From NCBI GenBank assembly GCA_028716845.1, contig JAQUPF010000001.1, forward strand, positions 216,167 through 280,166: a stretch of DNA of 64,000 bases. Reading direction: 5' to 3'. Shown piece by piece: positions 5,742-31,800 of the stretch. The notes beneath the pieces are model-generated. The model saw nothing but the letters and a program-made list of their open reading frames with translations. It searched no databases and was not told the origin of the DNA. Made by a program: the position numbers and the translations under genes. The stretch's first letter is position 1. Every line of letters starts with the position of its first letter. This stretch comes from a bacterium (GTDB lineage Bacteria; Auribacterota; Tritonobacteria; UBA1439).

Positions 5742-6683
5742 TTATAATTGTAAAGGGTTGACCCCGGGGGCCTTCCTGCTCCAGACCTCGGCGAGGACCG
5801 AGGCGGTGATCACGCACCAGGTCGCGAACAGGGCGCTCGGCAGCGCGGCTTCCGCCGAGAAGTGCTTGAGCGCGAGGACCGCCCCCAGGCCCGCGTTCTG
5901 CATCCCCACCTCCAGCGCGAGCGTGCGGCGCCGCTTCAGGTCGAAGCGGTAGAGCGCCCCCGCCGCGTAGCCGAGCAGGAGGCCGAGGGAGTTGTGGAGG
6001 ATGACCGCGGCGAAGATGAGCGCGCTCACGCGGGCGAGGTGGTCCCTGTTCAGGGCGACGACGAGGCCGCAGATGAAGGCGATGAAAAGCGCCGAGAGGG
6101 CCGGGAAGACCGCGGCGAACCCCCGTATCCGCTCGCGGAGGATCCCCTTGATCGCGAAGCCGGCGAGGAGCGGGACGATCACCATCTTGACGATGCTGAG
6201 GACCATCGGCCAAAACGGGATCTCAACGTAGGTCCGGCCGAAGACGGAGGTGCACAGCGGCGTGAGGACCGGCGCGAGGAGCGTCGAGACGCTCGTGAGG
6301 GCGATCGAGTACGCGACATCGGCCCGCGCGAGGTACGAGATCACGTTCGAGGCCATCGCGCCCGGCGCCGACCCGGTCAGGATGACGCCGAGGGCGAGGT
6401 CCGGCGGGAGGCGCAGCCCCCGCGCGACGAGGAACCCCGCCGCCGGCATGATGGCGAACTGGGCGAGCGTCCCCATGAGGACCGTGTGGGGCATCCTCGC
6501 CACGGGGGCGAAATCCGATGCGCGGAGGACCATGCCGATGCCGAGCATGGTGAGGGCGAACAGCCACTCGGTGTGGGGACGGAAGCCGGCGAGGAGGCCC
6601 GGCCGGAGGTACCCCGCGACGACCGCGAGGACCACCCAGAGGACGAGGAGCCGCGTGAACCGTCCGCACCACCTGTTGAACAT
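5742..6683 (-). CDS. Bile acid:sodium symporter (BASS) family transporter
   Basis: Track ORF, 313 aa polytopic membrane protein; EVGMQNAGLGAVLA motif typical of the BASS/ACR3-type fold. Confidence 0.7.
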   Translation of the reverse strand: MFNRWCGRFTRLLVLWVVLAVVAGYLRPGLLAGFRPHTEWLFALTMLGIGMVLRASDFAPVARMPHTVLMGTLAQFAIMPAAGFLVARGLRLPPDLALGVILTGSAPGAMASNVISYLARADVAYSIALTSVSTLLAPVLTPLCTSVFGRTYVEIPFWPMVLSIVKMVIVPLLAGFAIKGILRERIRGFAAVFPALSALFIAFICGLVVALNRDHLARVSALIFAAVILHNSLGLLLGYAAGALYRFDLKRRRTLALEVGMQNAGLGAVLALKHFSAEAALPSALFATWCVITASVLAEVWSRKAPGVNPLQL

Positions 6684-6778
6684 GGTTTCTCCCGAGGACC
6701 GCCGCCCGCGTCACGCCCCGAAACAAATGATTCCAAGGGGGTGACCGCGCGATGCGCGCCCGACCGGCGGCATGAACG

Positions 6779-8299
6779 TCATCGCAGGCGGTAGAGGGCG
6801 TACGTGTGGCGGATCTCCGGGGATTCGTACAGGGCGATGCGCTCATGCCCGGCCAGGAAATCCGAGACCACGGCGTCGTATTCCCCGCCGATATCGGTGA
6901 ACGCGACGTAGCGGAGCCCCTCCCTTTCCCTGAGCCGGCGCATCCTGTCCACGGCCGCCCTCCCCGCGGCGCCGTCTTTCCCCAGCCTCCCCTTCCACCA
7001 GCCGTAGCGGCGGGAGTAGTAGAGCACCTCCGGCCCCCAGCAGTCCGTGAAGAGCAGCTCTCCCTCGGGCACGCTCCTTCCGACCGTCCCCAGGAAATGC
7101 CACAGGTGCCAGTTCACGGGGTAGAAGCGCGCGAGCACCTCCCCGGCGGCGGCGCGGAGGGAGAGGCCGACGACGAGGGCGATCACCGCCCCCCTGCAGA
7201 GCGCGGATCCGCGGAAACGCGGGATCAGTGAGACGCAGGCGTCGAGGCCGCGGGCGAACATGAGGGCGAGCGGCGGGACGAAGGCGAGGAAGTAGTACTC
7301 GTGGAGGACGACGAAGAACGGGTACGAGTCCACCGCCGCGTAGAGAAACGCGGCGGCGAGCCACGCGAGGAACAGGCGGGCCCCCGATCCCTTTTCGCGC
7401 ATGAGGCAGGCGACGCCGGCCGCCGCGAAGAGCACGCCGAGGGGCGACAGCGAACAGCGGCCGAGGAAGACGGCGAGCGCCCCGAAGAACCGCCGGTCGA
7501 CCCACTGCACGTAATAGGCCGGCGACGACCAGTTCCTGAACGTGGCCACGCCGGGCGCGAATGTCTTCGGCAACTGGCCCGCGTTGAGCACGTGCATGTG
7601 GTAGAGGAACCATGCGGCGACCGCGACCGCCACGATGCCGCCGAGCGCCCAGAGCCGCGGCGCCAGGAACCCCCTGGGGCCCCGCCTCCCCGTAAGGTAG
7701 ACGGCCATCGGGATCACCAGGTACGCGTTCGGCGGATTGACCGCGAGGGCGAGCGCGCCGGCCGCCGCGGCCCACGCCATGCTCCGGCGGTCGCCCCTGT
7801 CGACGAACTCGGTGAACCAGTACAGCATCCCGACGGCGAGGAACATCGAGAAGCCCCCCTGCCGCATGAAGCACCGGCTGTAGAAGACGAAGAGCGGGCA
7901 GAGCGAGAAGAGGAGCGCCGAGAGGAGGCTCAGGCGGGCGGGGAAGAACTTCCTCGACAGTTGGAAAAAGAGGATGACCGCCCACAGGGCGAAGAGGATG
8001 CCCACGATCCTCCCCCATATCTCATTCACCCCCGTGAGGTGATAGAAGAGGGCGACGATGTAGGAGTAGAGGGGGAATTCCGGCAGGTTGGTCGTGCCCC
8101 CCCTCCCTGAGACGGTCTTCGGCAGGAGGAGGGAGTTCCGCTCCACGTAGTAGAGCCAGGACTGCATCGCCGTGAGGGTCTGGCGGTATGAATGGTTGTC
8201 AAGGAGCGGGGCGCGGAGGTGGTAGAGCCGTGGCAGGAGGCCGGCGACGAGGACGCCGCAGAGGAGCCACTTCTCGACCGAGCGGGGGACCGTCACCAC
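6779..8299 (-). CDS. GT-C superfamily membrane glycosyltransferase (ArnT/PMT-like), paralog 1
   Basis: Track ORF 506 aa; many TM segments, size and topology like ArnT/protein-mannosyltransferase-type enzymes; first 37 aa identical to paralog at 13107..14636. Confidence 0.7.
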   Translation of the reverse strand: MVTVPRSVEKWLLCGVLVAGLLPRLYHLRAPLLDNHSYRQTLTAMQSWLYYVERNSLLLPKTVSGRGGTTNLPEFPLYSYIVALFYHLTGVNEIWGRIVGILFALWAVILFFQLSRKFFPARLSLLSALLFSLCPLFVFYSRCFMRQGGFSMFLAVGMLYWFTEFVDRGDRRSMAWAAAAGALALAVNPPNAYLVIPMAVYLTGRRGPRGFLAPRLWALGGIVAVAVAAWFLYHMHVLNAGQLPKTFAPGVATFRNWSSPAYYVQWVDRRFFGALAVFLGRCSLSPLGVLFAAAGVACLMREKGSGARLFLAWLAAAFLYAAVDSYPFFVVLHEYYFLAFVPPLALMFARGLDACVSLIPRFRGSALCRGAVIALVVGLSLRAAAGEVLARFYPVNWHLWHFLGTVGRSVPEGELLFTDCWGPEVLYYSRRYGWWKGRLGKDGAAGRAAVDRMRRLREREGLRYVAFTDIGGEYDAVVSDFLAGHERIALYESPEIRHTYALYRLR

Positions 8300-8333
8300 G
8301 ATTCCTTCCTGCGGAGATTGTCCCGCGGGACCG

Positions 8334-9269
8334 CTATGAGAACAGGCCTATCCTCTCCTCGACGATATACGGGGGCCTGTTCTTCCCCTGGATGAACATC
8401 CGCCCGAGGTACTCGCCGATGATCCCCATGCAGAAGAGCTGGACGCCGCCGAGCAGCGTGATGAGGGCGGCGAGCGTCGCCCACCCCAGCACGGGCACCC
8501 CGCTGGTGACCTTCTGCACCATCACGACGGCGAAGTAGAGGATGCTCAGGGCCGCGACGACGAGGCCGGCGACCGAAATGAGCTTCAGGGGCTTCACGGA
8601 GAAGGAGAGGAGGGAGTCGAGGGCGAAGCCGAGCTGGCGCGCGAACGGGTATTTCGTGGTCCCGCGCCCCCTCCTGCCGGAGGCGACCGGGACCCTGGAG
8701 GTCGGGAAGTTGATGAGCCCAATGATGAACGTGATGCTGGGGTCGCGCTCGGAGAAACGGAGCAGCTCGTCGATCGTCCGCCTGCTGATGATCCTGAAGA
8801 GACTGGTCGTGAATTCGATCCTGTGGTCCGAGAGCGCGGCGATGAGCCGGACGAACGCGCGGGAGCACAGATTACGGAACCAGGTCTCGTTCTTCCGCTC
8901 CTTGACGCCGTAGACGACGTCGTACCCCTTCCGCATCTCGGCGTGGAGGGCGGCTATGTCCTCGGGGCGGTCCTGGAGGTCCCCGTCCATGATCACCGCG
9001 GCCCGGCCCGCCGCCTCCCGGAGCCCCGCCAGTATCGCGGCGTGATGCCCGAACCGGTTGGAGAGCTTGAGCGCCTTGAACCGCCGGTCCCGCGCGACGA
9101 GCTCACGGAGGCGGGGCACGGTCTCGTCGCTGTTGATGTCGGTGACGAAGATCACCTCCCATTCGCCCGCGAGACCCTCCAGGGCGCGGGTGAGCCGCGC
9201 GGAGAGCTCGGGGATGTTCTCCGCCTCGTCCCGGACCGGGATCACCACCGAGAGCTCCGCCATGGTCAT
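8334..9269 (-). CDS. Polyprenyl-phosphate sugar glycosyltransferase, GT2 family (ArnC/DPM1-like)
   Basis: C-terminal 311 aa of track ORF 8334..9860; start MTMAELSVVIPVRDEAENI; DGDLQD motif; two C-terminal TM helices; ATGA overlap with upstream acetyltransferase stop. Confidence 0.8.
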   Translation of the reverse strand: MTMAELSVVIPVRDEAENIPELSARLTRALEGLAGEWEVIFVTDINSDETVPRLRELVARDRRFKALKLSNRFGHHAAILAGLREAAGRAAVIMDGDLQDRPEDIAALHAEMRKGYDVVYGVKERKNETWFRNLCSRAFVRLIAALSDHRIEFTTSLFRIISRRTIDELLRFSERDPSITFIIGLINFPTSRVPVASGRRGRGTTKYPFARQLGFALDSLLSFSVKPLKLISVAGLVVAALSILYFAVVMVQKVTSGVPVLGWATLAALITLLGGVQLFCMGIIGEYLGRMFIQGKNRPPYIVEERIGLFS

Positions 9270-9910
9270 CGCCCCTCCCGTCCGGCCGGCGCGCCGGCGC
9301 GCATCTCGCGCGCCGGGACACCCGCCACGACGACGTTGTCGGGGACGTCGCGCGTCACGACGGCCCCCGCCCCCACCGTCGCCCCTTCCCCGACGGTCCT
9401 CCCCGGGAGGATCGTCGCGTTCGCGCCGACGTAGGCGCGGCGCCCGACCCTCGCTCCCCCGAGCAGCACGGCGCGCGGCGCGACGGTGGCGAAGTCCCCG
9501 ATCGACACGTCGTGCATCACGGTCGCGCCGACGTTGATGCGGACGAACTCCCCGATGGTGACGTTGCACGAGATGAAGGCGCCGCTCTGGAGGAGCACCC
9601 CCCTGCCGAGCGAACAGCGCGGCGAGAGCGTCGCGCCGGGCGAGACGAGCTCCGCGAACGCGAAGCCGTGCGCCTCGTAGGCGCGAGAGAGGTGCTCCCG
9701 CGCGGCGGGCGAGTCGGGGGAGATGAACACCGGGACGCCGGGGAGGCGCTCTCGGATCGCGGGGGCGTCGTCGTCGGAGCCGAGGACGGGGCAGCCGAGG
9801 TAGTCGCCCCGGAGCGCCCCGTCGATGATCCCGACCACGCGCCTGCCGCAGCGCGCGCACAGCTCGACGATCTCGTGGAACCCTCCAACAAGTATGAGGT
9901 CAGTTCCCAC
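9266..9910 (-). CDS. Hexapeptide-repeat sugar N-acetyltransferase (PglD/NeuD-like)
   Basis: Track ORF; N-terminal Rossmann-like region followed by left-handed beta-helix repeats (VGATVMHDVSIGDFATVAPRAVLLGGARVG...). Confidence 0.7.
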   Translation of the reverse strand: MGTDLILVGGFHEIVELCARCGRRVVGIIDGALRGDYLGCPVLGSDDDAPAIRERLPGVPVFISPDSPAAREHLSRAYEAHGFAFAELVSPGATLSPRCSLGRGVLLQSGAFISCNVTIGEFVRINVGATVMHDVSIGDFATVAPRAVLLGGARVGRRAYVGANATILPGRTVGEGATVGAGAVVTRDVPDNVVVAGVPAREMRAGAPAGREGR

Positions 9911-11036
9911 GGAGCGCCTCCTTGAATGATCGGATCACGTGCTCCTGCGCCTCCCCGCCGAGCCCGGCGTAGAGCGGCAGGGTGATCTCGCAGTCTGCCG
10001 CGTACTCGGTCAGGGGGAGCTCCGCGGGGAGGTGGCGGTAGATCGAGAAGCGGTGCACCGCCGGGTAGTGGACGCTCGTCGCGATCCCGCGCGCCTTGAG
10101 GGTCTCGCGCACGCGGTCGCGCCGCTCGCGCGTCGAACCATCGAGCACCACCGGGAAGATGTAGTTCGAGACGTATCCCCCGTGCTCCCGGAAGGGGATG
10201 ATGAGCCCCTCCGTGCCGCCGAGGCCGTCAAGGTAGCGGCGCCGCACCGCGGCCCGGTCCTCGATGTCCTCCCGGAGCCGCCCGAGCTGCACGAGACCCA
10301 GGGCGGCCCTGATGTCGTCGAGGCGGTAGTTGTAGCCGAGGTCGACCACGTCGTACGAGGTGCGGTGCCCCATCGCCCGCTCGTACGAGAGGCTGGTCAT
10401 CCCGTGCGATCGCAGGAGGCGCGCCCGCTCGCAATACTCCCGGTTGCCGGTGACGAGCATCCCCCCCTCCCCGGTGCTGATGTTCTTGTTGGAGAAGAAG
10501 CTGAAGCAGCCGATGTCGCCGATGGTCCCGAGCGCCCGGCCGCCGCAGTCGGAGAGGGGGGCGTGGGAGGCGTCCTCGATGACGCCGAGGCGGCGCCGCC
10601 GGGCGATCTCCATGATCCGGCCCATCGCGCAGGGGAAGCCGGCGTAGTGCATGACCACCACCGCCCTCGTCCGCTCCGTGACGAGCCGCTCGAGACGGAC
10701 GGGATCGAGCGTGAGGTCATCCGTTCCTGCGATGTCGCAGAAGACCGGGACGGCGCCCACGTACCGGATCGCGTTCACCGTGGCGACGAAGGTGAGGGAG
10801 GGGGTGATGACCTCGTCCCCCTCGCCGAGGCCGAGGAGCCGGCACGCCATGTGCAGGGCGGCCGTGCAGTTCGTCACGCCGACGGCGTGGGGCGCGCCGA
10901 CCATGGCGGCGAACCGGCGCTCCAGCTCCTCGGTGACGGGACCGGTGGAGATCCACCTCGACCGGAGGACGCGCACGACGGCCTCCTCCTCCTCCGGTCC
11001 GTAATTCAGGTCGAAGAGCGGGATCGTGTAGCCCAT
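9900..11036 (-). CDS. DegT/DnrJ/EryC1/StrS-family nucleotide-sugar aminotransferase
   Basis: Track ORF 378 aa; PLP-enzyme signature FSFFSNKNISTGEGGMLVT and overall DegT-like architecture. Confidence 0.85.
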   Translation of the reverse strand: MGYTIPLFDLNYGPEEEEAVVRVLRSRWISTGPVTEELERRFAAMVGAPHAVGVTNCTAALHMACRLLGLGEGDEVITPSLTFVATVNAIRYVGAVPVFCDIAGTDDLTLDPVRLERLVTERTRAVVVMHYAGFPCAMGRIMEIARRRRLGVIEDASHAPLSDCGGRALGTIGDIGCFSFFSNKNISTGEGGMLVTGNREYCERARLLRSHGMTSLSYERAMGHRTSYDVVDLGYNYRLDDIRAALGLVQLGRLREDIEDRAAVRRRYLDGLGGTEGLIIPFREHGGYVSNYIFPVVLDGSTRERRDRVRETLKARGIATSVHYPAVHRFSIYRHLPAELPLTEYAADCEITLPLYAGLGGEAQEHVIRSFKEALRGN

Positions 11037-11058
11037 GCCCCCCCACCGCCGCGGGAGA

Positions 11059-12042
11059 TCAAACCTCGTACCGGTCGGGACGGTACCGATGTCGGTTCTC
11101 CCTGATCCAGTCGATCGTCTCGCGGAGCCCGGCCTCGAGATCGTAGCGCGGCTCCCACCCGGTCGCCGCCTTCAGCCGGCGGTTGTCGGCCCTGAGCCGT
11201 TCCACCTCCCCCTCCTCCGGCCGCACCCGCGCCGGGGCGAGGACGATCCGCGCCTCCGCCCCCATGAGACGGGCGATCATGCGGGCGAGGTCCCCGACGG
11301 AGATCTCCTCGTCCATCCCGATGTGGACCGCCTCGCCGATAAAGCCGGGCGCGTCATGCGCCGCCAGGAAGCCGTCCACGGTGTCCCGCACGAACGTCAG
11401 GTCCCTCGTCGGCGCGAGGTTCCCCAGCCGGATCTCCCGCGCCCCCGCGAGGAGCTGGATGATGATCGAGGGGATCACGGCGCGCGCCGACTGCCGCGGC
11501 CCGTACGTGTTGAACGGCCGGACGATCTTCACCGGCAGGCCGAACGATCGGTGATAGCTCAGGGCGAGCTGGTCCGCGGCGACCTTGGTGGCGGCGTACG
11601 GCGAACGGGCGTCCGGCGGCTGCCCCTCTCCGATCGGGACCGTCCGGACGTTCCCGTACGTCTCGCTGGTCGAGGTCACGAGCACCTCCCCCGTCCCGCA
11701 CTCGAGGGCCGCCTGCAGGACGTTGTAGGTCCCCTCGACGTTCGTCCGCACGTAGGCCAGCGGCGAGACGTACGAGTACGGGATCCCGATGAGCGCGGCG
11801 AGGTGGAACACGGCGCCGCAGCCGCGCGCCGCCCGCAGCACGGCGTCGTAGTCGCGGATGTCGCCCGCGACCACCTCCAGTTCATTCCGGCAGGGGACGT
11901 CGTCGAGCCAGCCCCACGAGCCGCCGCCGACGTACCGCACGAAGGCGCGGACGCGCATCCCCATCGCCACGCACCGCTCCACGAGGTGCGAGCCGATGAA
12001 GCCCCCGGCCCCCGTGATGAGGACCATCCCGTCGGCGCTCAT
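11059..12042 (-). CDS. NAD-dependent nucleotide-sugar epimerase/dehydratase (SDR family)
   Basis: Track ORF; TGAGGFIGSHL Rossmann motif and Y-x3-K (SPYAATKVAADQL). Confidence 0.8.
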   Translation of the reverse strand: MSADGMVLITGAGGFIGSHLVERCVAMGMRVRAFVRYVGGGSWGWLDDVPCRNELEVVAGDIRDYDAVLRAARGCGAVFHLAALIGIPYSYVSPLAYVRTNVEGTYNVLQAALECGTGEVLVTSTSETYGNVRTVPIGEGQPPDARSPYAATKVAADQLALSYHRSFGLPVKIVRPFNTYGPRQSARAVIPSIIIQLLAGAREIRLGNLAPTRDLTFVRDTVDGFLAAHDAPGFIGEAVHIGMDEEISVGDLARMIARLMGAEARIVLAPARVRPEEGEVERLRADNRRLKAATGWEPRYDLEAGLRETIDWIRENRHRYRPDRYEV

Positions 12043-12737
12043 GGCTCCTCGAAGTGCGTCTTCACGATCTCGTGCGCCCTCTCGTAGTCGCTGACCCGTC
12101 CGATGTCAAGCCAGTACTCCGCGAGCTCGTACTTCATGACGGGCATCTCCCGCTCGAGCATGGTCCTGATCAGCGCGTCCATGCCGAAGTAGGTCCCGTC
12201 CGGGATGAGATCGAGTATGCCGGGCTTCATGACGTAGATGCCCGCGATGATCCAGGTGATGATCTCCGGCTTCTCCTGGATCCCCGTCACGCGGTCCCCG
12301 GAGAAGAAGATGTTGCCGAAGGCGAACGGGAGAATCTCCTTCTTGATGGCGATGGTGAGGAGCGAGTCCGCGGAGAGGCCGAACGCGTACAGCTTCCCGA
12401 AATCGGCCAGGGTGAGGATGTCGCCGTTCATCAGGATGAACGGCTCTGCGAGGCGGTCCCGGAGGAGCGAGAGAGGCCCCGCCGTCCCCAGCGGGACATC
12501 CTCCCTGCTCACGCTGAGCCTGACCCCGTACCGCGAGCCGTCCCCGAAGAACTTCTCGATGTAGTCGGACTTGTAGTTGGTGGTGAGGATGATCTCATCG
12601 AACCCGAATTTCCTGAGGCGATCGATCTGAATCTCGAGGACCGATTTCTCCCCCACCGGAAGGAGGGGCTTGGGGATGACCGAGGTGAACGGTTTGAGGC
12701 GCGTGCCGAGGCCCCCCGCGAGAATGATCGCCTTCAT
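12039..12737 (-). CDS. Sugar-phosphate nucleotidyltransferase
   Basis: C-terminal 232 aa of track ORF 12039..13049; start MKAIILAGGLGTRLKPFT (G-x-G-T-R-L motif); GGAGGGGAG RBS before ATG 12737; 4-bp overlap with epimerase start. Confidence 0.75.
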   Translation of the reverse strand: MKAIILAGGLGTRLKPFTSVIPKPLLPVGEKSVLEIQIDRLRKFGFDEIILTTNYKSDYIEKFFGDGSRYGVRLSVSREDVPLGTAGPLSLLRDRLAEPFILMNGDILTLADFGKLYAFGLSADSLLTIAIKKEILPFAFGNIFFSGDRVTGIQEKPEIITWIIAGIYVMKPGILDLIPDGTYFGMDALIRTMLEREMPVMKYELAEYWLDIGRVSDYERAHEIVKTHFEEP

Positions 12738-12750
12738 CTCCCCTCCGTGT

Positions 12751-12808
12751 CCGTGGCAGATTATATCGTGCCGGCTCCCGCGGAGGCGAGCGGAAATCCG
12801 CCCGCGGC
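12751..12808 (-). promoter_or_regulatory. Conserved promoter/operator-like element, copy 1 (imperfect palindrome + 15 nt + TATAAT)
   Basis: Blocks CCGTGGCAGATTATAT and GGAGGCGAGCGGAAATCCGCCCGCGGC shared with 14719..14776; on the coding (minus) strand a TATAAT hexamer lies about 20 nt upstream of the nucleotidyltransferase ATG. Confidence 0.35.
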
Positions 12809-12822
12809 ACGGGGCCGCCCGA

Positions 12823-13083
12823 TCACTTGAGGAGGAGGAGCCGGACATCCCTGACGCCGAGCTCGTCCCCGGAGCAGGGAAGTTTGCCGGCGAATCCCTC
12901 CGGCACCTTTCTCCTGGTGTCCCGAGTGGCGGAGATGTCCTTCTTCGGGAATGGCGAGGACTCGACCAGTTCCACGATCCCGCGTATGCCGAGACGGTTG
13001 ATGGCCGGGCTGTGGCAGATGGCGTCCACCTCCCGCCTCGCCACCTCATCCTCCGGGCCTTTGGACTTCAGCATGTCTTCCAT
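12823..13083 (-). CDS. 86-aa stand-alone paralog of the C-terminal domain of the methyltransferase at 17803..18978
   Basis: Track ORF; MEDMLKSKGPEDEV...NRLGIRGIVELVESSPFPKKDISATRDT...LLLLK aligns with the last about 86 aa of the 452-aa ORF (roughly 60% identical by eye). Confidence 0.4.
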   Translation of the reverse strand: MEDMLKSKGPEDEVARREVDAICHSPAINRLGIRGIVELVESSPFPKKDISATRDTRRKVPEGFAGKLPCSGDELGVRDVRLLLLK

Positions 13084-13106
13084 TTCCGCATCGGTGAGGA
13101 ACGGCG

Positions 13107-14636
13107 TCAGCGCTCCTTCAACCTGTACAGGGCGTAGTAGATTACGGGCTGCTCGTTCGTTTCCAGCCGGTGGAGCAGCTCGTGCGACGCGAGGTAGTCC
13201 GCTATCAGATTGTCGTAGGGGTAACCCGCGTGGGCCACCATGACGTACCCCAGCCCTTTCGCCGCGCGCAATTCCTCCATCTGCCGCACGACCTCCCCGC
13301 CCCTCGCGTCATCGAGATCGCCCCTGTACCGCCACCAGCCGTACCGGTAGGTGTAGTAGAGGGCCTCCGGCCCCGAGCAAGCCGTGTAGACGAGGGCGTC
13401 CTCGGGAATGCGATCTCTCGCTTCCATCACGAAGGCGTAGAGATTCCAATTGACGCGGTAGAAGACAGGGCGGGTGTCCCTCCAGGCGGGAAGGAAGAAC
13501 AGGCAGGAGAAGGCGCCCAGGACGGCGAGGCGAAACCACCGGACGCCCCGGAACCGCGGCGACAGCGAACAGCACCGATAGACGCCCAGGGCCGCGCAGA
13601 ACGCCAGCGGGGGGGCAAAAACAAGGTAGTAATACTCGTGGGGGCAGATGAAGAACGGATAGCTGTCCAGGACCGCGTCGATGCATGCCGCGGCGAGCCA
13701 TGCGAGGAACAGGCGCGAACCCGCGCTCCTGTCCCGCAGGAGAAACAGAAGCCCCCCGGCAGCGAAGAACACACCCCACGCCGAGAGCATGTAATCGGAG
13801 ATGTGCCGATGGAGGCTGCGGAAGAACGCCGGGTCGATCCACTGGGTGTAGTACGCGAGGGAGGACCAGTCCCGCATCTTCGAGTCCCGCATGAAAAAGG
13901 TGTGGGAGAGAACCCCGCCGCTCAGATAGTGCGCCTGGTAGCACATCCACGCCGCGCTCAGGCAGGCCACGATCGCTCCCAGCACCCAGAGTCGCCACTG
14001 CTTCAATGCGCTCCTCCCGTCCCGGCGGAACAGGTAGCATCCCATGGGGAGGAAGACATAGCCGCTGGGCGGGTGCACGGTGATGCCGAGCGTCGCGGCG
14101 GCGGCGGCCAGCAGCATGCTCTTCGTGGAACGCGTGTCCACGAACTCGACGAAGTAGTAGAGCATCGCGACCGTGAGGAAGGTCGACATCCCTCCCTGCC
14201 GGGTGAAGCTCCGGCTGTAGAAAATGAAAAGGGGGCACAGGGCGAACAGGAGGGAGGCGAAGAGGGAGAGGTCCTCGTCGAAGAACCTCCTCGTCAGACG
14301 GTAGAACCAGAACACGGCGGCAAGGGAGAAGACGATGCTGACGACCCTCCCCCAGATCTCGTCGAATCCGAAGGCCCGGTAGAGGAGGGCCACGAGGTAA
14401 CTGTAGATCGGGAACTCCGGCAGATCGGAGACGCCGCTTCTCCCGGCCATGGTCTTGGGATGGAAGAGGGACGTGCCCTCCCTATAGTAAATGGAGGACT
14501 GCATGGCGGTGAGCGTCTGCCGGAAGGAGTGGTTGTCGAGAAGCGGGGCGCGGAGGTGGTAGAGCCGTGGCAGGAGGCCGGCGACGAGGACGCCGCAGAG
14601 GAGCCACTTCTCGATCGAGCGGGGGAGCGTCACCAC
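13107..14636 (-). CDS. GT-C superfamily membrane glycosyltransferase (ArnT/PMT-like), paralog 2
   Basis: Track ORF 509 aa; same architecture as 6779..8299 with a near-identical 5' end. Confidence 0.7.
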   Translation of the reverse strand: MVTLPRSIEKWLLCGVLVAGLLPRLYHLRAPLLDNHSFRQTLTAMQSSIYYREGTSLFHPKTMAGRSGVSDLPEFPIYSYLVALLYRAFGFDEIWGRVVSIVFSLAAVFWFYRLTRRFFDEDLSLFASLLFALCPLFIFYSRSFTRQGGMSTFLTVAMLYYFVEFVDTRSTKSMLLAAAAATLGITVHPPSGYVFLPMGCYLFRRDGRSALKQWRLWVLGAIVACLSAAWMCYQAHYLSGGVLSHTFFMRDSKMRDWSSLAYYTQWIDPAFFRSLHRHISDYMLSAWGVFFAAGGLLFLLRDRSAGSRLFLAWLAAACIDAVLDSYPFFICPHEYYYLVFAPPLAFCAALGVYRCCSLSPRFRGVRWFRLAVLGAFSCLFFLPAWRDTRPVFYRVNWNLYAFVMEARDRIPEDALVYTACSGPEALYYTYRYGWWRYRGDLDDARGGEVVRQMEELRAAKGLGYVMVAHAGYPYDNLIADYLASHELLHRLETNEQPVIYYALYRLKER

Positions 14637-14703
14637 GATTCCTTCCCGCCCCGGCTTCCCCGCTGCTCGGTCATGAGAATCGGCCTCTCACCGTTGTGGG
14701 GGC

Positions 14704-16107
14704 TTAGTCCTCCCCGGCCCGTGGCAGATTATATATTGCAGGTTTCGAAGGAGGCGAGCGGAAATCCGCCCGCGGCGCCTTCCCGGGGGTTCCCGCGATC
14801 AGCATGAGGAAGCAGCACATCGGGAGCATCCAGACGACGCGCGCGCCGTATCGGTCATCCACGATGGAGAGCGAACTGCAGACGGCGTCGTTCGCCGCGA
14901 CGGCGCAGAGCGAGAAGAGAAGCAGGAAGACGAAGCGGCGGTCGCGGCGGATGCGGGGCAGCCGCATCCCCGCGCCGAGCGCCGCGAGCGAGGCGCACAG
15001 AGCCGCGGCGTGGACGGCGCCGAGGCGGCCGAGGCCGAGCGTTCCCCGCTGCTGCCTCGACCCGGCAAAGGCCTCGAAGCCGCGGGGGTATCTCCTGCGC
15101 AGCACCTTGTAGGCCCACTGGTCCGGCCGTATCGGCGACGTCGCGGCCAAGGCGTTGAACCGGCCGAACTGCCTGAAGGAATCCTTCGCGCAATCGGCCG
15201 CCCACGCGCGCGGGTAGGCCCGGATCGTCGCCCACGCCAGGCGCCTGTACTCGTCGTGGGACGCGTTCCACCCCCCGCCGAGCTGAAAGGGGCTGCGCGG
15301 GTCCCACAGGAAGTAGCCGGCGGGCCCGCGGATCTCTCCCCTTTCCCGGCATAGCTCGTACTCCTCCTCGCCGCAGTGCTCGTCGAGGAACCGCCGCAGC
15401 ATCCCCTTCTCCCAGAGGCGGGCGGTCATGAAGATATGCGAGGACCGCAGCGGTGAGAATCCCGCCCCGAGGCGCCAGTTGAGCGCGGAGAGGAAGACGC
15501 ACGAGGCGCCGACGAGGCACGCGGCGAGCGCGATGCGCCGCGCGGATGTCAGGGGGGCGACCCGCGACGCGAGACACGCGAGACACGCCGCCGCCACGAG
15601 GACCGCGCCGATGAGAAGGTGCGAGGCGTGCGCCGCCGCGGAGAAGACGAACAGCGCCGCGCATGCCGCGGTCGCCGCTCCGCGACGCCCGCCCGGCAGC
15701 AGGAGGAGGAGCAGGCAGAGCATGAAGACGGGAGTGAGCGCGTCTGCGAAGACGGTGCTCTGGACGAGTGGGGCGGTCGTCAGGAGGCCCAGGACCGCGC
15801 AGAGCGCGACCGTCATGGCGTCGTGGCGACGCGCCGTCAGCCGGCAGACGAGCGCGCGGAGCAGGCAGGCAAGGATGCACGCCTGCGCGAGCACCACGGG
15901 CCACAGCGACCGCCCGAGGCCCGCGGCCCTGATGAAGATGCTGTAGCCGATGGTGCGGTCAGGAGGAACGCGGAGCGTGAACGAGCTCTCGACGTAGGTG
16001 CCGGTGTCGGTATACACGAGAGGGTATCCGTTAAAAAATGCCGGCCACGAGAGCAGGAGCGTCCCGAGCAGCACCGAAAGAATGACCTGAACCCGGGGTC
16101 GGATCAC
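14704..16107 (-). CDS. Polytopic integral membrane protein, function unknown (possible glycosyltransferase)
   Basis: Track ORF 467 aa; GTG start preceded by AAGGAG; many hydrophobic segments; last about 25 codons are encoded by the conserved element at 14719..14776. Confidence 0.55.
   Translation of the reverse strand: MIRPRVQVILSVLLGTLLLSWPAFFNGYPLVYTDTGTYVESSFTLRVPPDRTIGYSIFIRAAGLGRSLWPVVLAQACILACLLRALVCRLTARRHDAMTVALCAVLGLLTTAPLVQSTVFADALTPVFMLCLLLLLLPGGRRGAATAACAALFVFSAAAHASHLLIGAVLVAAACLACLASRVAPLTSARRIALAACLVGASCVFLSALNWRLGAGFSPLRSSHIFMTARLWEKGMLRRFLDEHCGEEEYELCRERGEIRGPAGYFLWDPRSPFQLGGGWNASHDEYRRLAWATIRAYPRAWAADCAKDSFRQFGRFNALAATSPIRPDQWAYKVLRRRYPRGFEAFAGSRQQRGTLGLGRLGAVHAAALCASLAALGAGMRLPRIRRDRRFVFLLLFSLCAVAANDAVCSSLSIVDDRYGARVVWMLPMCCFLMLIAGTPGKAPRADFRSPPSKPAIYNLPRAGED
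14719..14776 (-). promoter_or_regulatory. Conserved promoter/operator-like element, copy 2
   Basis: Same two conserved blocks as 12751..12808 with a different 15-nt spacer; about 80 nt upstream of the PMT-like paralog 2 start, overlapping the 3' end of ORF 14704..16107. Confidence 0.35.
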
Positions 16108-16181
16108 GATATCTCCTTGCGGGACAATATATTACACCATTTCCCTTGAAGTATGCGCGTCTTATTGCGCCGTATAGAACA

Positions 16182-16198
16182 ATCGTGGTCCGACCCCA
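16182..16198. repeat. 17-bp motif TGGGGTCGGACCACGAT, copy 2 (inverted)
   Basis: Exact reverse complement of 5606..5622; lies in the AT-rich 107-nt gap upstream of ORF 14704..16107. Confidence 0.6.
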
Positions 16199-16214
16199 CC
16201 ATCCTGGTTGCACG

Positions 16215-17783
16215 CTATGGGGGGGACCCCGGACAATCACCGCGGAGTCGGAAGAGGCGGTACTCGCCGACGCGCTTCTCCCCATACCGCTCCGCGAGAT
16301 GGGCGAGCAGTTCATCGTCGGCGAGATCCCGGCCTGATGTCCCCGTCGCGTAGAGGACGATGCGCCGGCCCCCCGCTTCGGCGAGCGCACGGTCGAAATC
16401 CTCGCGCGTCCGGACGTTGCGGATCAAGTCCCGGTCGGCGTAGTACCTGAATTCCGGCCTCCCATAGAACGATATGACGGTTGTCTCGTCGGGGGCGGTC
16501 ATTGACCCGATGATCCCGCCGAGGCGGTGGCCGTCGTGGAACCGGAGCGCGGCGCGCTCCCGCTCCAGCCCGCGCAGCCCCGAGGCGCCGTGGAGGACGA
16601 GAACTGCCGCGATGAAGAGGGCGCCGAGCGGCCGTGAGAGCCGTGAGAGCGGTTCATACAGCCGCGCCGCCCCGACCGCGGCGAGCAGGGCGAATGACGG
16701 CGTCACGTTGAACAGGACGTACGTGTGGATGTAGGCGGCGTTCGTGAAGACGGCCGGGTGGAGCCAGCCGAGGACGAGGAGATTCAAGGCGACGACCCGC
16801 GCCTCCCGGCTGCCGCCCCGGCGGGCGAAGAGGACGGCGGCGCCGATCCCCGCGAGGATGATGGCCGGCCAGCCGAGGAGTGTCTCGAGGTACGACCGGA
16901 GGCGCAGGGCGTACTCCCGCATCGTGAACGCGTAGGCGGGGGGGGCGCCGATGTTCAAACGGAACAGGAGCGTCTTCATCCAGGCGCCGCCGAACACGCT
17001 CCCGGTCACGGACCTGACCGCCAGGAGAAAGAGGGCGATTCCCGCCGCCCCCGCCGCCAGGTAGTACCTGAGAACCGGGCGCTCTTTTCGATCAGGCCGT
17101 GGACGGGCGATCTCCTCCACCGCGATAAGAACGAGCGCGTAGTAGCCCGTCCATTCCGTCGCGATCGCGAGTACGAAGGCGATCACGCTCAGCGCCGGGA
17201 GGCGCCGCTGCGGCGCGGCCCGCCATGACCGGTAGGAGGCGTATGACATGAGGATGAAGAAGAGGACCATGGAGCCGAAGACCTCGACCTGGGGGCCGTA
17301 GAACAGGTCCATGGTCATGAACGCCGCGAAGCAGACGCCGAGGAGGGCGGCGCCGGGCCCGAGGACCGGCCGCAGGATGAGAAAGAGCAGCATGAGATTC
17401 CCGGCAGAAAAGAGGATGGGGATGGCCCTCGCGGCGGCCTCCGACTCCCCGAGGATTGCGAAGACGCCCGCCGTCACCACGGGGAGGAGCGGCGGATGGT
17501 GGAGGTAGAATGATCGTGGGGGGGCGTGGCCCCCGGCGTCACGAGCCATCACGAAGCGCGTCGCCCGGAAGCCGTAGCGGAGGTGGTTCCGGGCGACATG
17601 GCTGTAGACCGCGCCGTTCCAGCCGTGGTGGCCGCCCGCCCATCTGTCAGTGAGCCCCCAGCAGCGGAGGGCGATGCCCGCCGCGACGATGGCGAGGCAG
17701 AGCGCAACCGGTCCGGATACGGCCCGTTTCACGGCCTTACATCCTGCAGCGCGTGCTCCGCGCACACTGTCCCTCCCCGACAA
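16215..17783 (-). CDS. GT-C-like polytopic membrane glycosyltransferase (ArnT/PMT_2-type topology)
   Basis: Track ORF 522 aa; N-terminal multi-TM domain followed by a soluble C-terminal domain, the layout of GT-C enzymes; no close motif match verified. Confidence 0.55.
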   Translation of the reverse strand: MSGRDSVRGARAAGCKAVKRAVSGPVALCLAIVAAGIALRCWGLTDRWAGGHHGWNGAVYSHVARNHLRYGFRATRFVMARDAGGHAPPRSFYLHHPPLLPVVTAGVFAILGESEAAARAIPILFSAGNLMLLFLILRPVLGPGAALLGVCFAAFMTMDLFYGPQVEVFGSMVLFFILMSYASYRSWRAAPQRRLPALSVIAFVLAIATEWTGYYALVLIAVEEIARPRPDRKERPVLRYYLAAGAAGIALFLLAVRSVTGSVFGGAWMKTLLFRLNIGAPPAYAFTMREYALRLRSYLETLLGWPAIILAGIGAAVLFARRGGSREARVVALNLLVLGWLHPAVFTNAAYIHTYVLFNVTPSFALLAAVGAARLYEPLSRLSRPLGALFIAAVLVLHGASGLRGLERERAALRFHDGHRLGGIIGSMTAPDETTVISFYGRPEFRYYADRDLIRNVRTREDFDRALAEAGGRRIVLYATGTSGRDLADDELLAHLAERYGEKRVGEYRLFRLRGDCPGSPP

Positions 17784-17802
17784 CCCCGGCGCGTCCGGCC
17801 AA

Positions 17803-18978
17803 TCACTTCACGAGGAGCAACTCGACGTCCCTGATGCTGAGATCATCTTCCGAATAGGGGAGCTTCCCCCTGAATTCCTCCGGCACCTCTCTCTTGGTAT
17901 CGCGCGTAAAGGATATGTCCTTCCTCCTGAAGGGCGAGGCCTCGACAATCTGCACGATCTCGCGTATCCCGAGGCGGTTGATGATCGTGCTGCGGTAGAT
18001 GAATTCCACCGCCCGCCTCACCACTTCATCCTCAAGCCCCTTGGACCTCAGCAGGTTCTCCATCTCGGCCTCGGAGTAACGCAGGTGGCCGAAAGGCGGG
18101 ATGTGCGGTGTCGCGCCGTGCCGATCCGTCACGTGGTAATGGTGCCCCACGGCGCTGCTCCAGATGGGGCCGAACGAGGCGTAGAGCCGCCCGCCAGGCT
18201 TCAACACCCGGTGGATCTCGGAGAGGACCCGCCCGAGATCGAGGCAGTGCTCAAAGACGTTGAACGAATACGCCCCGTCGAAGGTATCGTCGTCGAACCC
18301 GAGCGACGAGGCGTCCATCATGACGTACGAATACCGCCGGTGCATGGAGAGGTAGCACTTCGAGAAGTAGTCAATGTCGATGCCGACGATCCTCCTCGGC
18401 CCCGCTCGCAGCAGCTGCCACGCGACGGCGCCGTTCCCGCTGCCGATCTCCAGGATCGTCCTCCCGCGAACCGTCATCCTCCCCGTCAGATCGCGGACGA
18501 ATCGCGCGTTGTACGGCTTGCCGATGAAGTCGTCGTACTCCCCGATGATGTCCGGGAACACCGGCGGGGAGAGCAATCCCCTCCCCGCGAGCCATGCCCT
18601 TGCCCTCTGGAACACACCCGGCGTGATCCGCACCCCCTTCGCGACAAGCGGCCGTGGATTCAATCTGTGCAGATCGGTCCTTCTGAACAGCGTCATTTCC
18701 ATGTCATAGACGCCGGGCGCGATCGTGAAGCTCTTGATGACCTCCACGGGCACGCCGGGCCTCCACGTGTCCGTCCGCGGCCGAATGACGAAGCCGATAT
18801 ACGCGTGCCGTTTCCCGGCAGGGCGGGCACCCGGCGGTTGACCGTTCGCGCGGACAAGCTTGATGCCGAGGGAATATTCACCATCGATCGGCCGCGACGG
18901 GAGAAATTTCAGGCGGATCAGCGCATGCCTTCCGAGGAAGGATACCCGCAGGCCGATGAGTTCGACCGGATCGCTCAT
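17803..18978 (-). CDS. Class I SAM-dependent methyltransferase with extra N- and C-terminal domains
   Basis: Track ORF 17803..19161; ATG at 18978 (MSDPVELIG); motif I LEIGSGNGAVA and LKPGGRLY; C-terminal 86 aa duplicated at 12823..13083. Confidence 0.7.
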   Translation of the reverse strand: MSDPVELIGLRVSFLGRHALIRLKFLPSRPIDGEYSLGIKLVRANGQPPGARPAGKRHAYIGFVIRPRTDTWRPGVPVEVIKSFTIAPGVYDMEMTLFRRTDLHRLNPRPLVAKGVRITPGVFQRARAWLAGRGLLSPPVFPDIIGEYDDFIGKPYNARFVRDLTGRMTVRGRTILEIGSGNGAVAWQLLRAGPRRIVGIDIDYFSKCYLSMHRRYSYVMMDASSLGFDDDTFDGAYSFNVFEHCLDLGRVLSEIHRVLKPGGRLYASFGPIWSSAVGHHYHVTDRHGATPHIPPFGHLRYSEAEMENLLRSKGLEDEVVRRAVEFIYRSTIINRLGIREIVQIVEASPFRRKDISFTRDTKREVPEEFRGKLPYSEDDLSIRDVELLLVK

Positions 18979-19180
18979 CGCCCTGTTCTTCCGCGCGGAA
19001 GTGGAAACGGTTCGATGGTTTGCATCGCTGCGATGGCAATCGCCCCTGCGACGGTGATGGACCTTTCCCCGCAGGAAGCCGGTGTATTCATGATCACGGG
19101 AGAGGCGGCGGCGGTTCCTGTTGGACAGGCGCGGGCTTGTATCTATTGAACCGCACTGCATACGCGATTCGACGCCAAAC

Positions 19181-21226
19181 TCATGGCTTCTTCTCCTGCG
19201 GGAGGAAATCGTGACGGGAGCCCAGCCGGAGGTTGACCAGTGGGTTGACCGCCTCCCAGCGGGGCCCCGGGCGGGGGCGGCGCGCGCCGCCGTAGAGGGA
19301 GGGGTGGTTGCGCTTCATGATCTCCATGAGCTCCGCGTGGCGCTCGATCGCGCGCGCGTCGCGCGTGACGCCGTGCCGGCGGTAGTGGAAGAGCGGCGCG
19401 GGGATGACCTCGCCCCTCCCCCCCGCCTCCGCGACGGAGAGCCAGAAATCCCAGTCCTCGTTGCCGCCCGCCATGTTCGGGTTGAAGCCGCCCACCCGCC
19501 GCCAGATCTCCTTCGTGAAGACCGCCGCCGTCGGGACGCAGTTCCGCCGCGTGAGCGTCCCGATCTCGAACGGCTCCGTCCCCCATTCGCGATCCTCGTC
19601 GCCGAATATCTTCACCCAGGAGTAGCTGATGTCGAGCCGCCGCGCCTCCATGGCGGCGACGCACTTCTTGAGGTAGGCCGGCATGATGCGGTCGTCGGCG
19701 TCGAGGCAGCAGATGTATTTTCCCCACGCCGCGGCGATCGCGTTGTTCCGCGCCCTGCTCACGCCCTGGTTCTCCTGCCGGCGGACCATCAGGTTCGGGA
19801 TGCCGCGGCGCTCGATCTCCGCGAGCTTCTCCACCGTGAACGGGTCGTCGGAGCCGTCGTCGACGATGATGATCTCGATGTTCCGCAGCGTCTGGCCGAG
19901 GGCGCTCTCGAGCGCCTCGTCCAGGAAACGGCCGTAGTTGTGGCAGGGGATGACGACGGTGACGAGCGGCGCCTCCCACGGCTCCAGCCGGAAGAGGCGC
20001 GGGAGGCCGGTGCCGAAGAGCCGCCGGGCCGCGTTCACAACCGGGATGGGGAGCCGCCGCTTCACACGGTCGGGGGCGAGCCGCGCCGCGAGGCGGTACG
20101 GGAACCGGTACAGACCCCGCCGCAGCAGATCCCCCTCCGGGACGAGGAGCAGCCGCCGGGCGACGCGCTTGAAGCGGCGCGGACAGAGGACGTCGATCAC
20201 GCGGAACGGGAGGAGGACGAGCCCCTTCAGCGAGTGGCGCGCGGCGCAGATTGCGCAGGCGAGCGGCCAGGGCCTCGACGACTTGATGCCGCGGAGCTCG
20301 TCCGAGGCGAGGTTGAGCCGGTGCTGCGCGTCGCCGAGCCGGCGCTCGAGCGTGGCGCGTTCCCTCTCGGCCTCCCGCGAGCGTGCCTCGAGGCCGGCGA
20401 CCCGCCGCTCGAGGTCCTCGATCCGGCGCTTCGCCGCCTCGTGGTGGCCGGTCAGCCGCCGCAGCGACTCCTCCCCCGTCTTCCAGTAGTGGCGATACCG
20501 CGCGATGAGGTCGTCCTTGGCGATGAGGACCTCCGGGAAGCGGCGCCGGTAGCTCTCGAGGTGCTTCTCGATGATCCTCCGCCGGAGCCGGCTCGACACC
20601 TCGGGCCTGTCCGCCCCGCGGACCATCGAGTCCTTCCGCACGCGGTACCGGAAGAGGAACTCCGGGATGAGGGCGACCCTGTAGCCCGCCTCGAGGACGC
20701 CGATCCAGAAGTCCCAGTCCTCGTACCCCGGCAGCGTCTCGTCGTAGCCCCCGGCCTTCTCCCACGCCTCCCGCCTGAACGGCGAGGAGCCGCACGCCCT
20801 GTTGGTGACGAGGAAGTCCGCCAGTTCCGTCCCCCGATCCCGCTCCTCCGCCTCCTTCTCGCCGAAGATCCGGTACCAGAACGTCGCCACGCCGACCTCG
20901 GGGCGGGAATCGAGGAGCGCCGCGCACCTCCCGAGGCAGTCCGGCTCGAGGATGTCGTCGGCGTCGAGGCAGCAGATGTACCCGCCGCCCGAGTTCCCGA
21001 TGCCGAGGTTCCGCGCGGCGGAGAGTCCCCGGTTGGGCGAGCGGATGACGCGCGTCTTCGGCCACGGGCAGGCCGAGAGGAGGCGCCCGGTGTCCCCGTC
21101 GGTCGAGCCGTCGTCCACGACGACGATCTCGAAGTCCCGCATCGTCTGCGCGAGGACGGAGTCCACCGCCTCGCCCAGGTACCGGCCGAGGTTGAAGCAG
21201 GGGATGATCACGCTGACTTTCGGCAT
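19181..21226 (-). CDS. Tandem two-domain GT2 glycosyltransferase with coiled-coil linker
   Basis: Track ORF 681 aa; two GT2 cores (VSVIIPCFNLGRYL...DADD and VTVVIPCHNYGRFL...DADD) separated by a Glu/Arg-rich heptad-like segment (EDLERRVAGLEARSREAERERATLERRL). Confidence 0.8.
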   Translation of the reverse strand: MPKVSVIIPCFNLGRYLGEAVDSVLAQTMRDFEIVVVDDGSTDGDTGRLLSACPWPKTRVIRSPNRGLSAARNLGIGNSGGGYICCLDADDILEPDCLGRCAALLDSRPEVGVATFWYRIFGEKEAEERDRGTELADFLVTNRACGSSPFRREAWEKAGGYDETLPGYEDWDFWIGVLEAGYRVALIPEFLFRYRVRKDSMVRGADRPEVSSRLRRRIIEKHLESYRRRFPEVLIAKDDLIARYRHYWKTGEESLRRLTGHHEAAKRRIEDLERRVAGLEARSREAERERATLERRLGDAQHRLNLASDELRGIKSSRPWPLACAICAARHSLKGLVLLPFRVIDVLCPRRFKRVARRLLLVPEGDLLRRGLYRFPYRLAARLAPDRVKRRLPIPVVNAARRLFGTGLPRLFRLEPWEAPLVTVVIPCHNYGRFLDEALESALGQTLRNIEIIIVDDGSDDPFTVEKLAEIERRGIPNLMVRRQENQGVSRARNNAIAAAWGKYICCLDADDRIMPAYLKKCVAAMEARRLDISYSWVKIFGDEDREWGTEPFEIGTLTRRNCVPTAAVFTKEIWRRVGGFNPNMAGGNEDWDFWLSVAEAGGRGEVIPAPLFHYRRHGVTRDARAIERHAELMEIMKRNHPSLYGGARRPRPGPRWEAVNPLVNLRLGSRHDFLPQEKKP

Positions 21227-21290
21227 CTCTCTTTCAGCTCGTCGTTCGTACTTCGTACATCGTACATCGCAAACAGAGGTTAATCCACAC
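21098..21290. repeat. About 190-bp duplicated segment spanning GT2 5' coding end, RBS and upstream hairpin, copy 1
   Basis: Near-identical to 22161..22353 (a few mismatches over about 190 bp, constant offset 1063). Confidence 0.7.
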
Positions 21291-21305
21291 AGTACGATGT
21301 ACGAA

Positions 21306-22289: not shown

Positions 22290-22353
22290 CTCTCTTTCAG
22301 CTCGTCGTTCGTACTTCGTACATCGTACATCGCAAACAGAGGTTAATCCACAC
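22161..22353. repeat. About 190-bp duplicated segment, copy 2
   Basis: See 21098..21290. Confidence 0.7.
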
Positions 22354-22403
22354 CGCACCCAGAACGAAGTACGAAGTACGATGTACGATGTACGAAGTAC
22401 GAA
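22308..22403 (-). promoter_or_regulatory. Perfect 25-bp inverted repeat (GTAC-rich) with 46-nt loop in the leader of the GT2 gene
   Basis: Arm TTCGTACTTCGTACATCGTACATCG (22308..22332) is the exact reverse complement of 22379..22403; a shorter 14-bp version precedes the next GT2 gene (about 21253..21305). Confidence 0.5.
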
Positions 22404-22409
22404 CCGTAT

Positions 22410-31379: not shown

Positions 31380-31489
31380 GTAGTTCGCCTGCATGGATGG
31401 ATCCTCCCGGCGCGTCTTTCCCGATTATAGCATCCGAGGGGATCGGCAGCTCGTCGTCCGCATCCCGCGGAGCCGCCGCGCACAATGCA

Positions 31490-31800
31490 CCCCGAACCGC
31501 GGATCTCCACGGATCATTGACGGATTGTCACGGATTGGATTGCAGTAGATACAGGGTTCCGGCCGCGGATTGACGCAGATACAACCGGCCACAGAGGACA
31601 CAGAGAACGCAGAGGATAGTGCCGCTTTCGGCTTTGAACGTTCAACTTTGAACTGTAGTTGTCCTCTGTGCTCTCTGTGGCTGACACATTGTTCCTTCCA
31701 CTCCACGCTCCCGCTTCCGACTCCGGACTGAAGTCGGATCCGCGATAATCCGCGTCGATCCGCGGCAAGAACATTATCCATTCGCGCTGATCTGCGCGGA
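31490..31800. repeat. Mosaic intergenic repeat element, copy a
   Basis: Contains module X (about 31563..31662, forward) and module Y (about 31496..31560, reverse) shared with other copies; lower GC than flanking genes. Confidence 0.7.

Follow-up and report, generated by a model that had tools for sequence, protein, structure and literature searches.

Why do two glycosyltransferase genes that are clearly diverged along most of their length begin with almost the same sequence? The question is raised by a stretch of 64,000 nucleotides (nt) from a bacterium of the GTDB lineage Auribacterota; Tritonobacteria; UBA1439 (assembly GCA_028716845.1, contig JAQUPF010000001.1, positions 216,167 to 280,166), hereafter the window. 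It carries two GT39/PMT_2 genes, PMT1 and PMT2, which lie 6.3 kb apart in the same orientation, PMT1 at the end of a sugar operon and PMT2 upstream of it. We find that PMT2 is a mosaic, with its translation start and first 32 codons derived from PMT1 and the remainder belonging to a different lineage. The PMT2 5′ tract very probably arose by a recent non-allelic gene conversion of ~104 nt from PMT1, layered on older exchanges. The two genes and the two copies of the tract are as follows.

6779–8299 (−): PMT1, A-type GT39/PMT_2 (GT-C fold) glycosyltransferase of 506 amino acids (aa); last gene of the sugar operon and donor of the tract
13107–14636 (−): PMT2, chimeric GT39/PMT_2 gene of 509 aa; codons 1–32 PMT1-derived, codons 33–509 B-type
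8206–8309 (−): donor copy of the putative conversion tract, comprising the Shine-Dalgarno-like GGAAGGAATC, the GTG start, the N-terminal tail and transmembrane (TM) helix 1 of PMT1
14543–14646 (−): recipient copy of the putative conversion tract in PMT2; 3′ breakpoint at coding sequence (CDS) nt 94–99, 5′ edge ~10 nt upstream of the start codon

The shared 5′ end of two diverged genes

The initial annotation had placed the two regions in register at a constant offset of 6337 nt, and they do align there without gaps, the genes remaining colinear over ~1.05 kb at 68.8% nucleotide identity. Within this alignment the tract stands out, with 102 of 104 positions identical and mismatches only at 8278 and 8290. 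The exact run, previously put at about 70 nt, measures 73 nt (8205–8277 = 14542–14614), and the 10 bases preceding the start codon, a putative Shine-Dalgarno sequence, are the same in both genes. Over the whole span first flagged (8163–8345), identity to the PMT2 counterpart is 85%. A count of 37 identical N-terminal residues proved too high, as 35 of the 37 match (the differences being V4L and V8I), although residues 9–37 do form an unbroken identical stretch. The gene bodies are indeed clearly diverged, at 60.7% nt and 49.8% aa identity in a codon alignment, and proper alignment leaves identity at the 5′ end strongly elevated over that of the body.

The same contrast is evident in codon-level divergence along the two genes. 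The synonymous divergence (dS) between PMT1 and PMT2 is 0.04 in codons 2–32 and 1.03 in the rest, thus ~27-fold lower in the tract, the value outside the tract being effectively saturated at a third-position GC content (GC3) of ~0.9. Synonymous sites in the tract are as identical as the non-synonymous ones.

PMT2 is a mosaic with PMT1 as donor

Close homologs of these proteins are rare, amounting to a handful among 5.8 billion protein clusters. Three of them come from other metagenomes. P0003 (loci L001–L004) and P0002 (L013–L014) show the same operon end with a single PMT followed by rpsB and tsf, while P0005 (L005–L012) lies in a different gene context. PMT1 is 57% aa identical to P0003 and to P0002. 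By contrast, PMT2 from codon 39 onward shares 73.7% aa and 77.0% nt identity with P0005 versus 49.8% and 60.7% with PMT1. These body identities define two old lineages, A (PMT1, P0002, P0003) and B (PMT2, P0005). PMT1 and PMT2 hence represent old separate lineages, or one of them arrived laterally, and they are not a recent duplicate pair. The first 38 residues of PMT2 show the opposite affinity, with 92% aa and 94% nt identity to PMT1 versus 54% and 60% to P0005.

We scored a site as informative if PMT2 matches either PMT1 or P0005 there but not both. Within the first 94 nt of the CDS, all 39 such sites are PMT1-type; beyond it, 363 of 494 are P0005-type and 131 PMT1-type. The maximum-chi-square breakpoint falls at CDS nt 94–99 (Fisher p=1.6e-21). 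When compared with the lineage consensus, the tract is A-type at 15 sites and B-type at 2, the body of PMT1 is A-like (233:149), the body of PMT2 is B-like (306:120), and PMT1 is A-type along its whole length. The tract also holds a lineage-specific junction, GGAAGGAATC then GTGGTG, where the relatives have a GT2 stop overlapping an ATG start (ATGA). The A-type character of the tract, its lineage-specific junction and the wholly A-type PMT1 thus establish PMT1 as donor and PMT2 as recipient.

Two causes had been put forward for the 5′ identity, gene conversion or strong constraint. The phylogenetic incongruence and the drop in dS within the tract support the former. The latter is refuted by the finding that residues 1–38, which comprise the N-terminal tail and TM helix 1 and end just before an invariant 'LDNHS(F/Y)RQT' loop, are the least conserved part of the protein when the window genes are compared with their relatives (51–64% aa). 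A shared RNA element was also considered and ruled out. An Rfam search over 6000–20000 gave no family, only a chance snoRNA-like match (E=0.44), and the predicted RNA folds of the leaders and 5′ ends were no stabler than those of shuffles (z of +0.72, +0.30 and −0.72). Species-representative genomes, searched with PMT1 by itself and with the A/B alignment, yielded no close match; the one match, in a Solibacteraceae metagenome-assembled genome, spanned 34 residues.

Non-allelic, or ectopic, conversion between bacterial paralogs is well documented, for example for tufA and tufB in Salmonella and for mosaic surface-protein or penicillin-binding-protein genes. The PMT2 tract resembles these classic cases in being short and non-reciprocal, in having identity far above that of its flanks, in having a discordant tree and in leaving the donor intact. 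It differs from them in that the partners are only ~60% identical outside the tract and in that the tract is confined to the 5′ end, where it is accompanied by an older copied gene tail and a promoter-like element.

Older copies upstream of PMT2 and the competing explanations

The sequence just upstream of the tract in PMT2 contains further pieces of the operon. The relevant features are given below.

14647–14686 (−): eroded GT2 tail plus copy of the GT2–PMT1 spacer, with the stop in register (TGA 14671–14673 versus TAG 8334–8336)
14719–14776 (−): second copy of the operon promoter-like element, GCGGGCGGATTTCCGCTCGCCTCC followed by TATAAT at 14728–14733; ~90 nt upstream of the PMT2 start
12751–12808 (−): first copy of the promoter-like element, TATAAT at 12760–12765; 23 nt upstream of the NTP-transferase start at 12737
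14630–14674 (−): predicted 14-codon upstream open reading frame (uORF) in the PMT2 leader; its ATG comes from TCATGA in the remnant and its TGA overlaps the PMT2 start (GTGGTGA)

The GT2 gene directly adjoins PMT1 on its upstream side, and the initial annotation had described a remnant of its 3′ end before PMT2. This remnant is real but weak. At the fixed offset, 24 of 40 positions across 8310–8349 are identical (binomial 3.5e-5 against a background of 28.6%), made up of 12/16 in the last GT2 codons (8334–8349 versus 14671–14686) and 12/24 in the spacer; beyond 8350 the fixed-offset identity is at chance, 24%. The core, GAGAGGCCGATTCTCAT versus GATAGGCCTGTTCTCAT, matches in register at 14 of 17 positions. 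By free local alignment alone the remnant is marginal, as 18 of 500 shuffles do as well, although the register of that alignment is exact. Its translation, '..GRFS*', resembles the '..GLFS*' of the window GT2 and differs from the 'GGGR*' of L001, the 'GAFR*' of L013 and the 'GEFKRR..' of L005. The remnant thus comes from this genome's own GT2–PMT1 junction. At 50–75% identity it is far more diverged than the tract (98%), and hence it reflects an older exchange and a separate event.

An ancestral B-type GT2 was considered as the origin of the remnant, given that a GT2 tail also precedes the B-type gene of L005. It was rejected because the remnant has TTCTCAT and the early stop in common with the window GT2; TTCTCAT is not shared with the GT2 tails in L001, L013 or L005. 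The gene preceding the B-type PMT in L005 (L005:1749–2285, also L006:9468–10004, on Joint Genome Institute contigs) joins, in one reading frame, an N-terminal CHASE2 fragment to the ~55 C-terminal residues of a GT2. These residues show 58% identity with the tail of the window GT2, and the gene runs 4 nt into the start of the B-type PMT; the fusion represents an independent GT2 remnant before a B-type gene. In the window the GT2 stop lies 34 nt before PMT1 (8300–8336); in L001, L013 and L005 the stop of the upstream gene overlaps the PMT start (ATGA). The GT2–PMT1 spacer still translates like a former GT2 tail, and thus the early GT2 stop is specific to this lineage.

The two copies of the promoter-like element are identical at 50 of 58 positions (86%; blastn E=4e-13). 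Its 24-mer occurs exactly twice in the window and in none of 100 shuffles, and ahead of the NTP-transferase gene in L001 the aligned position reads TATGAT. The TATAAT box, the position and the duplication of the element suggest that it is a promoter. The pieces upstream of and within PMT2 are of different ages (50–75%, 86% and 98% identity), which indicates either repeated exchange or an old rearrangement followed by a later conversion of the core.

These data point to the following order of events. The PMT2 body derives from an old B-type lineage of GT39/GT-C glycosyltransferases, and its 5′ control region would have been rebuilt at an earlier time from operon sequence, namely the GT2 tail, the spacer and the promoter-like element. 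Later, the ribosome-binding site, start codon and first 32 codons would have been overwritten non-reciprocally from PMT1, refreshing a short core. The 3′ end of the tract abuts the block for the family-wide 'LDNHS(F/Y)RQT..AMQS' loop, the first stretch at which the two lineages are similar enough for a heteroduplex. We infer gene conversion as the mechanism. Its outcome would place PMT2 under operon-like transcription and translation signals, such that both transferases would use the same lipid-linked sugar with different acceptors.

Other explanations must be weighed against this one. The initial annotation favored segmental duplication followed by divergence. In its strict form, a recent tandem duplication of the GT2 tail and PMT1 would be followed by fast divergence of the bodies while strong constraint held the 5′ end. 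Such a duplication accords with the colinearity at constant offset over ~1.05 kb and with the GT2-tail remnant, which is indeed PMT1-locus-like, and promoter copy upstream of PMT2. It fails for the gene bodies, as that of PMT2 is nearer to P0005 than to PMT1 (73.7% versus 49.8% aa) and that of PMT1 is nearer to P0003 and P0002 (57%). Moreover, synonymous sites are saturated in the body but have hardly changed in the tract, conservation across orthologs is lowest in the N-terminal 38 residues and no RNA element was found, which makes this explanation extremely improbable. A single old rearrangement that formed the hybrid with no later conversion, by unequal crossover or by operon duplication with internal deletion, fits the order of promoter copy, GT2 tail, spacer and PMT 5′ end, which resembles an operon deletion derivative. 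Yet the parts differ in age (spacer 50%, tail 75%, promoter 86%, tract 98%), and spacer-like neutral divergence predicts ~11 of 27 tract synonymous sites to differ where a single one does. On its own, then, such a rearrangement is quite unlikely; it is best seen as the older layer of the conversion scenario, with one or more later conversions still required.

Alternatively, the identical module may have originated by recombination and then been kept by selection for a shared expression level, for membrane insertion or for contact with a partner or donor. In line with selection, the promoter-like copy has kept 86% identity against 50% in the neutral spacer next to it, and the tract coincides exactly with the translation start and TM helix 1. 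However, selection at the protein level does not explain near-zero synonymous change, there is no RNA structure signal and TM helix 1 varies freely among orthologs, so we consider this unlikely. An assembly artefact would mean a chimeric contig, or a wrong resolution of the short repeat, and a real B-type gene with its own 5′ end. It draws on the fact that there is a single metagenome-assembled contig with no independent copy and that exact repeats exceeding the assembler k-mer can be mis-joined. Metagenome scans with the alignment and with a 32-nt piece of the tract were both empty, giving no independent copy of the junction, and an exact look-up of PMT2 in the contig index returned no record. 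Nevertheless, the PMT2 copy has private variants (8278, 8290) 5′ of the exact run, together with a diverged tail and an 86% promoter copy that belong to it alone. A separate sequence running from promoter through tail to PMT 5′ end therefore exists and must continue into some PMT body. The 73-nt run would also fit within an ordinary read, a linear contig with two direct repeats allows a single path that uses all the sequence, and the flanking synteny with L001 is intact. An artefact is accordingly a poor prospect, with little probability.

Several points do weigh against the conversion scenario. There is one assembly only, and P0001 and P0004 are each on a single contig. Only three related lineages were found and none has both paralogs. 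A sigma-70 consensus scan found no complete promoter and no −35 box. Finally, a first exchange at ~60–70% identity would be inefficient for RecA-type recombination, and the first event may have been illegitimate, through microhomology or template switching.

A more elaborate form of the scenario, to which we give a small chance, envisions that the promoter-like element, the ribosome-binding site, the start codon and the signal-anchor in TM helix 1 form a cassette for expression and insertion that is under selection, moved onto a laterally acquired B-type gene and has been kept identical by recurrent conversion. The uORF, arising from the dead GT2 stop region, would here replace the lost GT2 in translational coupling. 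If this were true, a second transferase with a different acceptor would be tied to the same lipid-linked amino-sugar supply.

The probable glycosylation operon and its surroundings

Both proteins match Pfam PMT_2 (PF13231) well above the gathering cut-off of 26.1 bits, PMT1 with 58.0 bits (E=1.7e-15) and PMT2 with 68.0 bits (E=1.4e-18). A third, distant paralog, PMT3, is located at 16215–17783 (38.4 bits). The NCBI accessions of the two window proteins are MDD5555822.1 and MDD5555829.1, both on one 397-kb contig. A PDB sequence search gave no match for PMT; a fold search with an AlphaFold model of PMT1, built from five sequences (predicted TM-score, pTM, 0.78), gave structural matches instead. 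All 32 of the 32 PDB matches with E<=0.001 are GT-C enzymes, including STT3, AglB, PglB, ArnT, DPY19, ALG9/12, AftA/B, Pmt4 and EmbA–EmbB, with ArnT (5f15) superposing best (TM-score 0.64/0.60). In the model, TM helix 1 is formed by residues 6–29. Just past it lies Asp34 of 'LDNHS(F/Y)RQT', which does not vary among the five A-type and B-type sequences and may be catalytic, as the GT-C acidic residue of the first extracytoplasmic loop.

PMT1 thus resembles ArnT (5f15/5ezm) in being a PMT_2-type GT-C enzyme of ~500–550 aa whose first loop carries an invariant acidic residue. It is only 14% identical to ArnT, has no PDB sequence match and no ArnT NCBIfam match, its sole NCBIfam match being the sub-threshold TIGR03663. 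The operon contains a 4,6-dehydratase, an aminotransferase and an acetyltransferase, not the ArnA/ArnB/ArnD set. Assignment as an ArnT ortholog was therefore rejected, there being no equivalog-level match and no ArnA/ArnB/ArnC/ArnD context. The genes upstream of PMT1, of which the first four were identified by Pfam and NCBIfam matches, are as follows.

12039–12737 (−): NTP-transferase
11059–12042 (−): LegB-like 4,6-dehydratase
9900–11036 (−): DegT/PseC/LegC-like aminotransferase
9266–9910 (−): NeuD/PglB/VioB-type acetyltransferase
8334–9275 (−): GT2 polyprenyl-phosphate glycosyltransferase (PgfS/ArnC-like), its last codons the source of the remnant

L001 has the sugar-nucleotide genes (9266–12737) in identical order at 62–76% aa identity. 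The GT2 matches Pfam Glycos_transf_2 (E=2.4e-20), is 74.5% aa identical to the L001 GT2 and aligns over its full length with the NCBIfam models PgfS (2.4e-61, 207.6 bits) and ArnC (1.8e-48, 165.2 bits), scores below the equivalog cut-offs of 500 and 529, respectively. By analogy with three-component glycosylation systems, the likely product of the operon is an acetamido-deoxy sugar, which would be attached to polyprenyl phosphate and then transferred on the outer side of the membrane.

Three-component periplasmic glycosylation systems combine a polyprenyl-phosphate GT2 of the GtrB/ArnC/PgfS type with a flippase and a GT-C transferase (PMC11127046). A streptococcal GtrB likewise occurs with a GT-C enzyme (PMC12041528), and the S. 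mutans Pgf operon encodes two GT-C-like proteins (PMC5856776). The PgfS/ArnC-similar GT2 in the window is likewise directly upstream of a GT-C enzyme and beside sugar-nucleotide genes, although NCBIfam scores at this locus fall below every equivalog cut-off. No flippase was seen among the open reading frames (ORFs) scanned in 2886–25091, where no search aimed at the GtrA or SMR type was made. The GT-C paralogs PMT1, PMT2 and PMT3 could share one lipid-linked donor. The locus opens no new biological question, as gene conversion between paralogs and glycosylation loci with multiple GT-C enzymes are already established. It is a natural and well-resolved case of a cell-surface glycosylation locus rebuilt by short recombination patches, in which a diverged transferase first received upstream control sequences from the operon's own transferase and later its start region too. 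The lesson for annotation is that PMT1 and PMT2 are not recent duplicates and that whole-gene trees, or ratios of non-synonymous to synonymous divergence (dN/dS), would be misleading.

The gene order in L001 is GT2s, a 441-aa membrane protein, an 82-aa ORF, the operon, PMT and rpsB. L001 therefore has the same operon with a single PMT and without the block of promoter copy, GT2 tail and PMT2, which in the window is inserted between the homolog of the 441-aa gene (homology 16050–14803) and the small ORF. A second extra block in the window, a methyltransferase plus PMT3, lies further upstream. The homolog of the 441-aa membrane protein, ORF 14704–16107 (−), has no Pfam family. Its homology ends at ~14803, past which the frame stays open for 32 further codons, across the promoter-like copy, and stops at 14704; the loss of homology marks the left junction of the inserted block. 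Across 12823–19161 (methyltransferase fragment, PMT2, 441-like gene, PMT3 and methyltransferase), GC3 is 0.82–0.88 versus 0.92–0.96 in the flanking genes, and the organism of P0005 also has lower GC. The low GC3 is compatible with a lateral or more recent arrival of the B-type gene, though no proof of it.

The segment 12823–13092 (−), 13 nt past the PMT2 stop, repeats in frame the final 89 codons of the methyltransferase gene 17803–19161. It is 76% identical in nucleotides to 17803–18072 (−), with a dN/dS of 0.32 and the stop codon kept. The 82-aa ORF of L001 (5241–5489) is partly similar to it and occupies the same place, and the accession gap from MDD5555822 to 829 implies one CDS called at 12823–13092. 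This tail copy may still be an active small gene rather than a relic.

Other repeats occur elsewhere in the window. Tandem GT2 paralogs at 19181–22375 (−) have a spacing of 1063 nt (20645–21305 versus 21708–22375, 79% over 677 nt), and ORF 19181–21226 contains two GT2 domains. A perfect 26-nt inverted repeat (22307–22332 / 22379–22404) has a further copy at 21244–21269. The large ORF 34510–37101 (+) contains five ~120-nt repeats (34721–35429) and Thr/Pro-rich 12-nt periodic repeats (36716–37004). A family of 90–180-nt repeats, in both orientations and up to 95–99% identical, is found at 31482–31661, 42155–42334, 47259–47378, 48053–48144, 49685–49797 and 62623–62930; its motifs include CCACGGATTGGCGCGGATCC and CTCTGTGTCCTCTGTGGC, and its members may be regulatory repeats or resemble miniature inverted-repeat transposable elements.

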